Source: a plasmid. Taken from it: a DNA stretch of 64,000 bases. Location of the stretch: the NCBI RefSeq assembly GCF_054482595.1, contig NZ_JBTHVH010000004.1; one strand, 5' to 3'. Position numbers: made by a program. Below, in pieces: positions 57,001-63,000 of this stretch (position 1 is the stretch's first letter; every line of letters begins with the position of its first letter).

Positions 57001-60000
57001 AATCAGCTTCTCCTCGGCAACCACCTCTTCAGAGAGGAAGCAGACGGAAGAAATGCTTAAATCAAACTCACCTGCACGACAGGAGGATTGGTAACGATAT
57101 GAGCCGGAAACAGCAACGTCTGGTAATTTGGATGAACGGCATCAAAGTCGGGTACTGGGAAAAAAGCAAAGGGGTAGACAGCTTAGAATACCTTCCTGAA
57201 TGGGTTGCTGACGAACAGGGAAGGCCGCTGTCATTGTCCCTTCCTTTTACTCCCGGGAACCAGGTCTGGCGTGGAAATGTGGTACGTGACTATTTTGATA
57301 ATTTACTGCCGGACAGCGAAGGCATACGCAGACGTCTGGCAATGCGTTACAAGGCCGATAGCCTGGAGCCTTTTGATCTGCTGACGGAGCTGGGAAAAGA
57401 CTGCGTGGGCGCGATACAGCTGCTTCATGACGGAGATGAACCCACTGATTTATATTCCGTGAAGTATCACCCGCTTACTGAATCAGAAATTGCGGCAACT
57501 TTGCGTAATACCACGGAGACATTGCTACCGGGCAGGCCAGAAGATAACGACGACTTACGTTTATCTATTGCCGGTGCTCAGGAGAAAACAGCCCTACTGT
57601 GGCATGAAGATCGGTGGTGTATGCCGGAGGGTAATACACCAACGACGCATATATTCAAGCTACCGCTCGGACTTGTGGGGAACATGAAAGCCGACATGAG
57701 CTCGTCGGTTGAAAATGAATGGCTCTGCTCGGTACTTCTCGGCCAGTACGGGCTCCCCGTGGCAAGAACGCAGATTGCTCACTTTGAAGATCAGAAAGCG
57801 CTGGTGGTAGAACGTTTTGACCGAAAATGGTCAGGAGACGGACAATGGATCATTCGTTTACCCCAGGAGGATATGTGTCAGGCCCTGGGCGTTTCGCCAT
57901 TACGAAAATATCAGGCGGACGGCGGGCCAGGTATATCGGAAATTATGGAGGTTCTGAGTAATTCAGACCGTGCTGAGCGTGACAAAGCGCAGTTTTTTAT
58001 GACGCAGATAATTTTCTGGATGATGGCCGCAACAGATGGCCACGCTAAAAATTTCAGTATTTCTATTGGGCCACAGGGACGTTATCACCTTACACCAAAC
58101 TATGATGTGTTGTCGGCATGGCCGGTGATCGGTCATGGGAACAATCAGATATCCTGGCAGAAGTGCAAATTGGCGATGGCCGTACGTGGCAGTAGCAACT
58201 ATTACCAGATATATCGAATACAACGACGCCACTGGATCAGGCATGGTGAGATAACCGGCCTGAGTAAACAGCAGACAGAGGCGATGATAGAGGAAATCAT
58301 CGCCAGAACCCCAGGTGTCATTGAACGTGTTAGCGGGCTTCTTCCGGACCAGTTCCCCCAGCAGCTTGCGGAAAGTATTTTTGATGGAATGAGGCAGCAA
58401 TGCAGGCGCCTGGCTGAGAAATGACAGCCGCAATTTATAGTGTGCATGTTTTCAGAATAGCTGATGTAAGCGTGAGGATTCAGTATGACTGAAGAACAAA
58501 AAAGAATAGAGCGGGCTATTGAGTTGGCTTGTCGTTACGGCGGAACCGATGAAATGCATCATCTGCAATGGGTCGTGGATCAGATGGTAAGAGAACTTGC
58601 TGGAGAACGTTATGCACAGATTGTAGCTGATGCCACCAGCGGAGAAGATGGGCCTGATACTTACAAATGGAGTGTTGGGATCGCGCCTTAACAGCTGTCG
58701 GTCTGGGGGTGAAAACGTATTCTTCATTCAGCGAATTCCCAGGCTTCACATTAAGACTAAAGCGGCGGCCGCAGTAACGTAAGAGAAAATAAATGGCTAT
58801 TTTAGCAATCATTGCAGTTATCGCCCTGGGTGGGTACGCCTACGGATTTATTAAAACCCGTGAGCTGAGCGCTTTGCGTAAAGAAATGAAACTATACGTG
58901 GATCGCATGGAAGCGGCGGAGCTGGACTTACACGCAATCAGAAGTGTAGCGGAGCACCGGTTGCACGGTGCAGGTAAACAGTTTGCCGACCTTTACAGCC
59001 GTATCGACGGTGCAACTGTGACGCTGACACCCGAAGATCAGCTGTTACTGGCAACGATGCCATTTAATATTCAGGATGTAGAAGACATCGTAAACGAGCG
59101 CGGTCCAAAGACAATTAGCGGCCGTCCATTCTGGGAAGTTGAGCCAGGCCCGCATGATTATGAATATGGCCCGCAATATCCGTATTTCCCAGACCAGCGC
59201 TAGGAAGAGATCAAGATGAGAGAGCCAAGACCACGCCATACCTTGCAGGTCATTCGTGTACCTTCTCTGGAGGTTCAGGACCTGGGGCTGACCAGCTTTG
59301 ATAGCTGGCTTGACGAGCACGGGTATGACAAAACGAATGCCAGAAATAACCGTACCATCTGGGCGAGAGAAGGCGGATGGCATCTGAAACGTTGCAGAAA
59401 TCTTGAAACTGGCACGGACGATTTCTGGTTTATCGCTTTCGATGGTAAAGGCGGGAAGATTGGCACTGTTGCAAAGTTAGCGATGAGGCAGCCTTTTGTC
59501 TTATTCAAAGGCCTTACATTTCAAAAACTCTGCTTACCAGGCGCATTTCGCCCAGGGGATCACCATAATAAAATGCTGAGGCCTGGCCTTTGCGTAGTGC
59601 ACGCATCACCTCAATACCTTTGATGGTGGCGTAAGCCGTCTTCATGGATTTAAATCCCAGCGTGGCGCCGATTATCCGTTTCAGTTTGCCATGATCGCAT
59701 TCAATCACGTTGTTCCGGTACTTAATCTGTCGGTGTTCAACGTCAGACGGGCACCGGCCTTCGCGTTTGAGCAGAGCAAGCGCGCGACCATAGGCGGGCG
59801 CTTTATCCGTGTTGATGAATCGCGGGATCTGCCACTTCTTCACGTTGTTGAGGATTTTACCCAGAAACCGGTATGCAGCTTTGCTGTTACGACGGGAGGA
59901 GAGATAAAAATCGACAGTGCGGCCCCGGCTGTCGACGGCCCGGTACAGATACGCCCAGCGGCCATTGACCTTCACGTAGGTTTCATCCATGTGCCACGGG

Positions 60001-63000
60001 CAAAGATCGGAAGGGTTACGCCAGTACCAGCGCAGCCGTTTTTCCATTTCAGGCGCATAACGCTGAACCCAGCGGTAAATCGTGGAGTGATCGACATTCA
60101 CTCCGCGTTCAGCCAGCATCTCCTGCAGCTCACGGTAACTGATGCCGTATTTGCAGTACCAGCGTACGGCCCACAGAATGATGTCACGCTGAAAATGCCG
60201 GCCTTTGAATGGGTTCATGTGCAGCTCCATCAGCAAAAGGGGATGATAAGTTTATCACCACCGACTATTTGCAACAGTGCCGTTGATCGTGCTATGATCG
60301 ACTGATGTCATCAGCGGTGGAGTGCAATGTCGTGCAATACGAATGGCGAAAAGCCGAGCTCATCGGTCAGCTTCTCAACCTTGGGGTTACCCCCGGCGGT
60401 GTGCTGCTGGTCCACAGCTCCTTCCGTAGCGTCCGGCCCCTCGAAGATGGGCCACTTGGACTGATCGAGGCCCTGCGTGCTGCGCTGGGTCCGGGAGGGA
60501 CGCTCGTCATGCCCTCGTGGTCAGGTCTGGACGACGAGCCGTTCGATCCTGCCACGTCGCCCGTTACACCGGACCTTGGAGTTGTCTCTGACACATTCTG
60601 GCGCCTGCCAAATGTAAAGCGCAGCGCCCATCCATTTGCCTTTGCGGCAGCGGGGCCACAGGCAGAGCAGATCATCTCTGATCCATTGCCCCTGCCACCT
60701 CACTCGCCTGCAAGCCCGGTCGCCCGTGTCCATGAACTCGATGGGCAGGTACTTCTCCTCGGCGTGGGACACGATGCCAACACGACGCTGCATCTTGCCG
60801 AGTTGATGGCAAAGGTTCCCTATGGGGTGCCGAGACACTGCACCATTCTTCAGGATGGCAAGTTGGTACGCGTCGATTATCTCGAGAATGACCACTGCTG
60901 TGAGCGCTTTGCCTTGGCGGACAGGTGGCTCAAGGAGAAGAGCCTTCAGAAGGAAGGTCCAGTCGGTCATGCCTTTGCTCGGTTGATCCGCTCCCGCGAC
61001 ATTGTGGCGACAGCCCTGGGTCAACTGGGCCGAGATCCGTTGATCTTCCTGCATCCGCCAGAGGCGGGATGCGAAGAATGCGATGCCGCTCGCCAGTCGA
61101 TTGGCTGAGCTCATGAGCGGAGAACGAGATGACGTTGGAGGGGCAAGGTCGCGCTGATTGCTGGGGCAACACGTGGAGCGGATCGGGGATTGTCTTTCTT
61201 CAGCTCGCTGATGATATGCTGACGCTCAATGCCGTTTGGCCTCCGACTAACGAAAATCCCGCATTTGGACGGCTGATCCGATTGGCACGGCGGACGGCGA
61301 ATGGCGGAGCAGACGCTCGTCCGGGGGCAATGAGATATGAAAAAGCCTGAACTCACCGCGACGTCTGTCGAGAAGTTTCTGATCGAAAAGTTCGACAGCG
61401 TCTCCGACCTGATGCAGCTCTCGGAGGGCGAAGAATCTCGTGCTTTCAGCTTCGATGTAGGAGGGCGTGGATATGTCCTGCGGGTAAATAGCTGCGCCGA
61501 TGGTTTCTACAAAGATCGTTATGTTTATCGGCACTTTGCATCGGCCGCGCTCCCGATTCCGGAAGTGCTTGACATTGGGGAATTCAGCGAGAGCCTGACC
61601 TATTGCATCTCCCGCCGTGCACAGGGTGTCACGTTGCAAGACCTGCCTGAAACCGAACTGCCCGCTGTTCTGCAGCCGGTCGCGGAGGCCATGGATGCGA
61701 TCGCTGCGGCCGATCTTAGCCAGACGAGCGGGTTCGGCCCATTCGGACCGCAAGGAATCGGTCAATACACTACATGGCGTGATTTCATATGCGCGATTGC
61801 TGATCCCCATGTGTATCACTGGCAAACTGTGATGGACGACACCGTCAGTGCGTCCGTCGCGCAGGCTCTCGATGAGCTGATGCTTTGGGCCGAGGACTGC
61901 CCCGAAGTCCGGCACCTCGTGCACGCGGATTTCGGCTCCAACAATGTCCTGACGGACAATGGCCGCATAACAGCGGTCATTGACTGGAGCGAGGCGATGT
62001 TCGGGGATTCCCAATACGAGGTCGCCAACATCTTCTTCTGGAGGCCGTGGTTGGCTTGTATGGAGCAGCAGACGCGCTACTTCGAGCGGAGGCATCCGGA
62101 GCTTGCAGGATCGCCGCGGCTCCGGGCGTATATGCTCCGCATTGGTCTTGACCAACTCTATCAGAGCTTGGTTGACGGCAATTTCGATGATGCAGCTTGG
62201 GCGCAGGGTCGATGCGACGCAATCGTCCGATCCGGAGCCGGGACTGTCGGGCGTACACAAATCGCCCGCAGAAGCGCGGCCGTCTGGACCGATGGCTGTG
62301 TAGAAGTACTCGCCGATAGTGGAAACCGACGCCCCAGCACTCGTCCGAGGGCAAAGGAATAGAGTAGATGCCGACCGAACAAGAGCTGATTTCGAGAACG
62401 CCTCAGCCAGCAACTCGCGCGAGCCTAGCAAGGCAAATGCGAGAGAACGGCCTTACGCTTGGTGGCACAGTTCTCGTCCACAGTTCGCTAAGCTCGCTCG
62501 GCTGGGTCGCGGGAGGGCCGGTCGCAGTGATTCAGGCCCTTCTGGATTGTGTTGGTCCCCAGGGCACGATTGTCATGCCCACGCACTCGGGTGATCTGAC
62601 TGATCCCGCAGATTGGAGATCGCCGCCCGTGCCTGCCGATTGGGTGCAGATCTTGCGCAACGAGATGCCGGCATACGATCCGCAAACCACACCAACTCGG
62701 AACATGGGTGCAGTGGCTGAATTGTTCCGGGCGTGTCGCAAACACTTTTGGAGGCAGCTATCACCCAGCCAAGGCCGGTATTTTCATGCTTTGTTAACCT
62801 TTTGCAGTCCGAAGAGGCGCGCAAGCAAATCATTCTGGTCATTGACGGTCCAGCCGCCTGAAAAGCCAAAGCCCTTCCGCAGCCACAGCATCGCCTCGAA
62901 ACCCGCGATGGTTCGCCGCGCCGTGTTAAAGGATTGGAAACCGCCGATCTTCGGCATGTTCTTCTTCACCCGGAAATGGTCGCTCTCAATCCCCTGCTGG

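Follow-up and report, generated by a model that had tools for sequence, protein, structure and literature searches.

The window, a 64,000-nucleotide stretch of plasmid DNA, holds a single copy of IS26, which lies between the 5' remnant of a backbone gene of IncHI2 plasmids and a module of aminoglycoside resistance genes headed by aac(3)-IV. The features of the locus are as follows, in window positions.

59216-59461, plus strand: 5' remnant of an IncHI2 backbone gene, 'HNH endonuclease signature motif containing protein' (HNH')
59454-59461: left 8-bp flank, GGAAGATT, found also in pJD053-230K, pNDM-M121 and the SA1982 plasmid
59462-60281, minus strand: IS26, canonical, 820 bp, with IRR at 59462-59475 and IRL at 60268-60281
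59514-60218, minus strand: tnp26, 234 aa, annotated WP_001067855.1
60269-60298, plus strand: putative hybrid promoter, with the -35 within the IS26 repeat and the -10 in the flank
60282-60289: right 8-bp flank, GTTGATCG, the beginning of the aac(3)-IV module
60332-61108, plus strand: aac(3)-IVa, 258 aa from the GTG at 60332
61337-62362, plus strand: aph(4)-Ia, hygromycin B phosphotransferase
62368-62728, plus strand: 5' fragment of a third aminoglycoside gene
62729-63619, minus strand: second IS6-family element, ISEc59-type in the naming of the literature

The IS26 copy has exactly the 820-bp length given in the earlier note, with 14-bp terminal repeats (GGCACTGTTGCAAA) that are perfect on the plus strand at the left end and on the minus strand at the right end. 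It encodes a single IS6-family DDE transposase, Tnp26, which matches the NCBIfam IS6 family transposase profile (transpos_IS6) with E=2e-82 and 275.6 bits, against a cut-off of 125, so that repeats, length and transposase all place the element in the IS6/IS26 family. All six other IS26 copies in pJD053-230K, a near-identical plasmid, match it with 100% identity. Because tnp26 lies on the minus strand, with its transcription directed away from aac(3)-IV, the 'right-hand' repeat in which an outward TTGCAA had been located earlier is more precisely the IRL of the element.

To the right of IS26, the aac(3)-IVa product scores 483 bits with the NCBIfam AAC_3_IV profile (cut-off 420), and its GTG start is preceded by a Shine-Dalgarno-like GGTGGAG at 60316-60322. 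An in-frame ATG at 60305 offers an alternative start that would yield a 267-aa form; AAC(3)-IV proteins of both lengths confer the same phenotype (PMC7504452). The third gene encodes a homologue of AAC(3) other than AAC(3)-IV, is cut by the next IS, and covers profile positions 1-86 of 232 of Pfam Antibiotic_NAT, its best NCBIfam matches (AAC_3 and AAC(3)-VIII) both falling under the cut-off. The element that cuts it, with 19-nt imperfect inverted repeats and an IS6 family transposase (E=3e-75), forms the other edge of the aac(3)-IV/aph(4)-Ia module. An IS26-bounded pseudo-compound transposon carrying aac(3)-IV was therefore rejected: unlike such transposons, the module has IS26 on one side only, with the ISEc59-type element opposite.

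The left flank and the truncated backbone gene

Re-inspection of the sequences adjoining the element confirmed that its 8-bp flanks differ (GGAAGATT on the left, GTTGATCG on the right), and the window IS26 thus lacks an 8-bp target-site duplication. Such a duplication is expected only after simple or cointegrate-resolved insertion and is not required for the identity of an IS26. As a control, one IS26 copy of pJD053-230K does carry a target duplication, CTTCTGGT. The missing duplication at the window IS26 is the signature of a deletion or of an IS-by-IS event.

The open reading frame beginning at 59216, which the earlier note described as cut after about 82 codons, is a 246-nt remnant comprising exactly 82 of the 271 codons of the intact 816-nt gene present in pSAL4614-1. 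Its reading frame continues into IS26 as far as position 59623, where a stop ends a fusion ORF of 135 aa, and the Pfam HNH_2 domain (residues 176-222) is confined to the intact protein and missing from the remnant. Across the breakpoint the intact gene reads GGAAGATT followed by TACCCGCTG, not GTTGATCG. Comparison with IncHI2 references, by which it had been proposed to identify a deleted segment, shows that the window lacks the remainder of the HNH gene and about 3.2 kb of backbone (reference positions 87135-90368 are absent), and the HNH'-IS26 junction marks the loss of no less than 3.2 kb of backbone.

A search for the lost 3' portion of the HNH gene elsewhere in the window and in pJD053-230K found nothing, this plasmid having been reconstructed by substituting the window for record positions ~30,001-75,617, with the first 5 kb of the window unmatched in record positions 1-30,000 and the upstream part not strictly collinear. 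None of the seven IS26 copies of pJD053-230K is a partner flanked by GGAAGATT or AATCTTCC. An intramolecular inversion that retained the reciprocal junction was rejected for lack of such a partner. Nor does the reciprocal junction (IS26, GGAAGATT and the rest of the HNH gene) have any exact match among the 72,556 plasmids of PLSDB in either orientation of IS26; two apparent matches proved to be IS26 copies elsewhere near the HNH gene, for example directly upstream of it in pFG92-1-MCR1.

The HNH'-IS26 junction itself is present in 51 IncHI2 plasmids of PLSDB; aac(3)-IV adjoins it directly in only about 18 of them. The junction is identical in pNDM33-1 (MN915011) and pNDM-TJ33 (MN915010). In IncHI2-ST3 plasmids such as pNDM33-1 and pHNGD64-NDM, the resistance region begins downstream of hipBA (PMC8398143), and the window IS26 occupies the same backbone position as this boundary of the multiresistance region. 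The IncHI2-ST3 plasmids differ among themselves in the content immediately inside the boundary IS26.

Two junctions brought together on one IS26

The right junction has a distribution of its own, being identical in 638 of the approximately 643 PLSDB plasmids that carry the 5' end of aac(3)-IV. These plasmids come from many genera, and varied DNAs lie beyond the far side of their IS26. The two flanks have separate histories, and the HNH gene continues differently past the breakpoint, in agreement with the earlier proposal that this copy marks a recombination or deletion junction rather than a simple insertion.

Both junctions are found, on two different IS26 copies, in pNDM-M121, where the order is HNH', GGAAGATT, IS26, ACTGATCC, 11,711 bp, CATAAATG, IS26 and GTTGATCG-aac(3)-IV. 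The two copies are in direct orientation, and a sul3 integron segment of 11.7 kb separates them; the plasmid is otherwise collinear with the window, and the flanking DNA is more than 99.9% identical. The window thus equals the pNDM-M121 structure minus one IS26 and 11,711 bp, and the outer flanks of the direct pair are the flanks of the window IS26. Since both junctions stand on two direct IS26 copies in pNDM-M121, we infer that the window IS26 is the product of an IS26-by-IS26 event. Insertion and excision of IS26 translocatable units have been described (PMC4196232, PMC4676283), and the window fits the product expected of excision or of IS26-by-IS26 recombination from the dynamics of translocatable units and pseudo-compound transposons (Harmer, Moran and Hall 2014; Harmer and Hall 2015). 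All IS26 copies being identical, the crossover is not mappable, and deletion and unit insertion leave the same trace.

The difference between the window and pNDM-M121, exactly one IS26 and the intervening segment, is symmetric as to direction, and it is possible, though rather unlikely, that the arrangement in the window is ancestral. On that account no deletion would have occurred here, and relatives of the pNDM-M121 type would have gained the sul3 segment and an IS26 as a translocatable unit, inserted conservatively beside an existing IS26; units of this kind do prefer sites next to an existing IS26 and leave no target duplication (PMC4196232). Weak parsimony argues in the other direction: aac(3)-IV adjoins the left junction in only the minority of plasmids noted above, and the same ACTGATCC/delta-tnpR flank lies beside the boundary IS26 in both other relatives examined, which suggests that this is the commoner arrangement. 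The order and direction of events preferred here, with loss of the segment from a structure like that of pNDM-M121, are inferred on these grounds.

A putative hybrid promoter for aac(3)-IV

The IRL contains the outward TTGCAA (60269-60274), separated by an 18-nt spacer from TATGAT in the flank (60293-60298), which sits 33 nt upstream of the aac(3)-IVa GTG. This geometry is as the earlier note described it, and a TG at 60290-60291 in addition converts the -10 into an extended element, TGcTATGAT. The arrangement is that of an IS-derived hybrid promoter, with an outward -35 in the repeat and, 16-18 nt away, a flank -10 facing the gene. In a scan of 59100-60700, TTGCAA/TATGAT was the sole promoter-like site, a count of 1 against a shuffle expectation of 1.0 and hence no enrichment. 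The generic scan was replaced by a background estimate specific to this geometry at the fixed -35 of an IS26 end, according to which a -10 matching at least 5 of 6 positions with TGn, 16-18 nt away, would occur in 0.075% of arbitrary flanks (1.0% if TGn is not required). Of the 14 IS26 ends in pJD053-230K, only 1 shows the extended -10 geometry. A chance origin of the motif is, by this estimate, unlikely. The rare plasmids without the IS26 junction, pSCE516-1 among them, are also without the -10 and are therefore uninformative as a natural control for the promoter.

The capacity to form hybrid promoters is shared by IS6-family elements in general (PMC7986276), and the TTGCAA of IS26 has been confirmed as a -35 by 5'RACE at aac(6')-Ib-cr (PMC11156391). 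The same outward TTGCAA combined with a resident -10 is known from aphA7, blaSHV-2a, blaKPC and aac(6')-Ib-cr/blaOXA-1 (PMC7986276; PMC11156391); the spacer is 17 nt at aac(6')-Ib-cr and 18 nt in the window, where the -10, with its upstream TGn, is putative. The motif statistics and this literature support the earlier suggestion of a plausible hybrid promoter, and a sigma-70 promoter formed by IS26 and its flank most likely drives aac(3)-IV, with a predicted transcription start near A60305. No plus-strand promoter-like or terminator-like site was found between aac(3)-IV and aph(4)-Ia; the latter is probably co-transcribed with aac(3)-IV, and the same promoter probably serves both genes.

How much of this activity would be owed to IS26 is a separate matter. 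Only 4 of the 6 bases of TTGCAA agree with the -35 consensus, and the spacer, at 18 nt, exceeds the optimum by 1; the contribution of IS26 may be modest, since the TGn extended -10 could act largely by itself. Promoters with a TGn extended -10 can function with poor -35 elements. It is accordingly conceivable, although unlikely, that aac(3)-IV is expressed independently of the IS26 -35, either from the extended -10 alone or by read-through that enters on the hipBA/HNH' side. In 59100-60700 the scan predicts no terminator-like site, including across the plus strand of IS26, so that read-through could add to aac(3)-IV expression in this plasmid. As a general mechanism, read-through from the HNH' backbone is ruled out by the invariance of the right junction in 638 plasmids despite the varied DNA on the far side. 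The widely used apramycin cassettes presumably keep this IS26 end as well, which also speaks against expression independent of the -35. Finally, the experimental activity of TTGCAA as a -35 elsewhere (PMC11156391) favors the hybrid promoter.

The predicted start falls on, or within 1-2 bases of, the A of the ATG at 60305, and a leaderless mRNA is for this reason conceivable. Translation of the 267-aa AAC(3)-IV from such an mRNA, alongside or instead of the 258-aa form from the GTG, seems very doubtful; if it did occur, the IS26 junction would set the mode of translation as well as that of transcription.

A combined account of the locus

These observations can be joined in one account, in which the window IS26 lies at the hipBA-proximal edge of the IncHI2 multiresistance region. 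On its right it carries an old, fixed IS26(IRL)-GTTGATCGTGCTATGATCGACTG-aac(3)-IVa junction, travelling with a module composed of IS26, aac(3)-IV, aph(4)-Ia and the IS6-family element, and the TTGCAA of its repeat would pair with the TGcTATGAT of the captured DNA as a sigma-70 hybrid promoter. On its left, an edge IS26 would have attacked the backbone HNH gene at GGAAGATT and deleted the 3' two-thirds of that gene together with at least 3.2 kb of backbone. Recombination between two direct IS26 copies, whether homologous or catalysed by Tnp26, would then have joined the two flanks and removed one IS26 and the 11.7-kb sul3-integron segment that pNDM-M121 retains. What the sequences show directly is the anatomy, the history of each flank and the segments that are missing; the order and direction of events, the activity of the promoter, its transcription start and the co-transcription of the two genes are deduced from them. 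The account as a whole, that is, one IS26 with two unrelated earlier junctions, joined by an IS26-by-IS26 event and supplying a hybrid promoter for aac(3)-IV, appears to us highly probable.

Misassembly at IS26 repeats is a known hazard, which the window alone cannot exclude, but a simple insertion with a decayed target duplication, or an assembly artefact from collapsed IS26 repeats, is effectively refuted by the unrelated origins of the flanks (IncHI2 backbone and high-GC aac(3)-IV module), by the continuation of the intact HNH gene with other sequence past GGAAGATT, and by the identical 2.4-kb arrangement of some 18 complete plasmids, deposited independently of one another, whose hosts are E. 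fergusonii, Salmonella and E. coli.

Neither the junction nor its reading as a hybrid promoter is new. PMC7504452 cites a study of 1984 (Brau, Pilz and Piepersberg, Mol Gen Genet 1984;193:179) whose title ties IS140 to the expression of AAC(3)-IV, and IS140 is a synonym of IS26 (PMC7986276). The IS140-aac(3)-IV (aacC4) junction of plasmids pWP14a/pWP7b accordingly involves the same IS and the same gene, and, as far as the title of that paper conveys, a role of the IS in aac(3)-IV expression was proposed there as it is here. In the window the junction has the sequence common to 638 modern plasmids, and at the level of the 1984 title no difference from the earlier junction is demonstrable. The observation is real and routine; it is textbook IS26 biology and leaves current understanding unchanged.

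Within that frame, the putative promoter would account for the expression of apramycin/gentamicin (aac(3)-IV) and hygromycin (aph(4)-Ia) resistance wherever the module lands, and, because it moves with the IS26 end, for the fixation of the junction in over 600 plasmids of different genera. The unequal flanks preserve a trace of the way in which IS26 remodels the resistance region in IncHI2 plasmids of Chinese livestock, and they provide markers for tracing plasmid sub-lineages, the left junction being common to 51 plasmids and the full arrangement to about 18.

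IS26 truncates an HNH-endonuclease gene of the IncHI2 backbone

The window contains a single copy of IS26, and since its transposase gene, tnp26, lies on the minus strand, the terminal repeat adjoining aac(3)-IV is the IS26 IRL.

Features of the IS26/aac(3)-IV region (window positions)
59462-60281: IS26, exactly 820 bp, perfect 14-bp terminal repeats GGCACTGTTGCAAA at each end
59514-60218, minus strand: tnp26 transposase gene (WP_001067855.1, canonical; NCBIfam IS6 transposase)
60269-60274 and 60293-60298: putative hybrid promoter from the promoter scan; -35 TTGCAA, 18-nt spacer, -10 TATGAT preceded by TG
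60332-61108: aac(3)-IVa, first gene of the module
61337-62362: aph(4)-Ia, second gene of the module
62368-62728: remaining 5' portion (about 120 codons) of a third gene, AAC(3)-like; follows aph(4)-Ia directly and is cut off by an IS6-family element at 62729
62729-63619, minus-strand transposase: second IS6-family element, ISEc59-type, with a length of 891 bp and inverted repeats of 19 nt (imperfect)

On re-inspection, the 8 bp to the left of IS26 (GGAAGATT) and the 8 bp to its right (GTTGATCG) differ, and their comparison reveals no target-site duplication. An internal control for the appearance of a simple insertion is provided by an IS26 copy elsewhere, in two plasmids (pJD053-230K, record positions 108815-109634, and record L011, 119997-120816), which is flanked by a perfect 8-bp duplication (CTTCTGGT / ACCAGAAG).

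The ORF that begins at 59216 represents the 5' portion of a gene of the IncHI2 backbone, 816 nt in length, which is annotated as 'HNH endonuclease signature motif containing protein' and carried intact by the reference plasmid pSAL4614-1. The match to the intact gene ends exactly at 59461, leaving 246 nt (82 codons); the Pfam HNH_2 domain, at residues 176-222, is therefore missing from this remnant (HNH'). The HNH' frame continues into IS26 to give a 135-aa fusion ORF, which is meaningless. The comparison with IncHI2 references proposed in the earlier note places the missing backbone at pSAL4614-1 positions 87135-90368 (ca. 3.2 kb), comprising HNH codon 83 onward, two hypothetical genes and a second HNH gene. 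Every element of that note's description of the sequence is correct, including the length of IS26, the unequal flanks and the truncation after about 82 codons.

The two IS26 flanks have independent junction histories

A 120-bp probe spanning the left junction, HNH'|IS26, recovers 51 plasmids from the plasmid database PLSDB, all apparently large and of IncHI2 type; among them are pNDM33-1 and pNDM-TJ33, the resistance region of which is reported to begin downstream of hipBA (PMC8398143). The right junction, IS26|aac(3)-IV, is found in 638 PLSDB plasmids (100-bp spanning probe, coverage at least 80%), out of 643 that carry the 5' portion of aac(3)-IV; the hosts of aac(3)-IV-bearing plasmids belong to Escherichia, Salmonella, Klebsiella, Acinetobacter and further genera. 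On the right, the junction is old and fixed, and its history is independent of that of the left flank. The full HNH'|IS26|aac(3)-IV arrangement occurs in only ca. 18 plasmids, including pJD053-230K, with which the window shares 100% identity over its last 17 kb.

Neither GGAAGATT nor its complement occurs as a partner flank at any of the seven IS26 copies of pJD053-230K, and no PLSDB plasmid carries, in either orientation, the reciprocal junction of IS26, GGAAGATT and the remaining HNH gene. With no partner flank and no reciprocal junction, this pattern does not fit a simple IS26 insertion on the left; it fits an IS26 adjacent deletion, by intramolecular replicative transposition, or later loss. 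Together with the unequal flanks and the absent backbone, it bears out the earlier reading of a recombination or deletion junction.

In another IncHI2 plasmid, pFG92-1-MCR1 (NZ_CP142678.1, 2304-3841), IS26 directly precedes this HNH gene but at another position, so that the hipBA-HNH region seems to be a recurrent boundary of IS26-bounded resistance regions. The pJD053-230K backbone is inverted relative to pSAL4614-1 at record positions 113326-132061, and window positions 1-5000 have no match within its positions 1-30,000, indicating that the source differs from that record somewhere upstream.

Origin of the combined junction

A two-copy arrangement is present in the related plasmid pNDM-M121 (NZ_CP083586.1), where the first IS26 joins HNH' GGAAGATT to ACTGATCC, and the second joins CATAAATG to GTTGATCG, followed by aac(3)-IV, aph(4)-Ia and ISEc59. 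The copies share one orientation and enclose 11,711 bp (delta-tnpR, intI1, estX, aadA2, cmlA, aadA1, qacL, sul3 and mef(B)'); the surrounding DNA is >99.9% identical to the window, which corresponds to the pNDM-M121 structure minus one IS26 and 11.7 kb. Recombination between such direct copies, either RecA-dependent or through Tnp26-catalysed excision of a translocatable unit (PMC4676283), would leave a single IS26 with both outer flanks and lose the 11.7 kb. The reverse event, conservative insertion of the unit beside an existing IS26 (PMC4196232), is possible, and because the IS26 copies are identical the sequence is compatible with either direction. The ACTGATCC flank adjoins the boundary IS26 in both other relatives examined, and this wider distribution weakly favors deletion in the window's lineage.

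The aac(3)-IV/aph(4)-Ia module

The element at 62729-63619 is of the type named ISEc59 in IncHI2 papers, and the module is thus bounded by two different IS6-family elements, not by two IS26. The fragment at 62368-62728 comes from an AAC(3) homologue other than AAC(3)-IV (best NCBIfam matches AAC_3 and AAC(3)-VIII, both sub-threshold), which suggests that the captured donor segment held an aminoglycoside-modifying gene cluster. The 228-bp gap between aac(3)-IVa and aph(4)-Ia contains no plus-strand promoter-like or terminator-like site, and aph(4)-Ia is likely to be co-transcribed with aac(3)-IV. A 73-codon ORF between the genes (61129-61350) overlaps the aph(4)-Ia start; related records list it as hypothetical protein WP_000171321.1, and it is unlikely to be a genuine gene.

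A putative hybrid promoter at the IS26 end

No sigma-70-like site other than the TTGCAA/TATGAT pair, with the 18-bp separation given in the earlier note, lies in 59100-60700, and the generic promoter scan shows no enrichment over shuffles (1 found versus 1.0 expected). Against a narrower background, in which a -10 hexamer with at least 5/6 matches was sought 16-18 nt from the fixed IS26-end -35 at all window positions on both strands, such a hexamer follows 1.0% of arbitrary flanks, or 0.075% when TGn is added. Such a hexamer occurs at only one of the 14 IS26 ends of a related plasmid, namely the aac(3)-IV end. This rarity suggests that the arrangement was selected or inherited rather than accidental, and the TTGCAA/TGcTATGAT pair probably acts as a working promoter, with transcription starting near A60305. 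As caveats, the -35 has only 4/6 matches, at a spacing of 18 nt, and aac(3)-IV might be driven by the extended -10 alone, without the -35. Read-through from the hipBA side, with no terminator predicted across IS26, could add to expression in the window's context, but cannot account for expression in hundreds of others.

The apramycin-resistance cassettes in common use in vectors for Streptomyces and E. coli keep this IS26 end ahead of aac(3)IV. For the family to which IS26 (synonym IS140) belongs, hybrid promoters are described as 'clearly a general property' (PMC7986276). Brau et al. 1984, as cited in PMC7504452, linked IS140 to AAC(3)-IV expression in the title of their paper. At aac(6')-Ib-cr, the same IS26 TTGCAA is paired with CATAAT at 17 nt, as confirmed by 5'RACE (PMC11156391), whereas the window has TATGAT at 18 nt.

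In the IncHI2 plasmid pSCE516-1 (NZ_KX023262.1, 3740-4030), the IS26 end and -10 are replaced by the strA upstream region, up to the exact strA start codon, and 25 bp normally found after strB; the fusion to aac(3)-IV falls at the ATG that corresponds to window 60305. The strAB deletion is oddly ORF-precise, and the replacement may reflect either a promoter swap in nature or an artefact of the record.

Standing of the finding and the aac(3)-IV start codon

The IS26/aac(3)-IV finding is genuine but ordinary, and its description is accurate: everything found is of a known kind, and this particular junction dates back in the literature to a 1984 paper, as cited in PMC7504452. In aac(3)-IV, an in-frame ATG at 60305 (267 aa) lies 27 nt upstream of the annotated GTG at 60332 (258 aa), the two forms conferring the same resistance phenotype (PMC7504452). 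The presumed transcription start of the putative hybrid promoter coincides with this ATG, which hints at a leaderless mRNA and, possibly, a 267-aa form of AAC(3)-IV.
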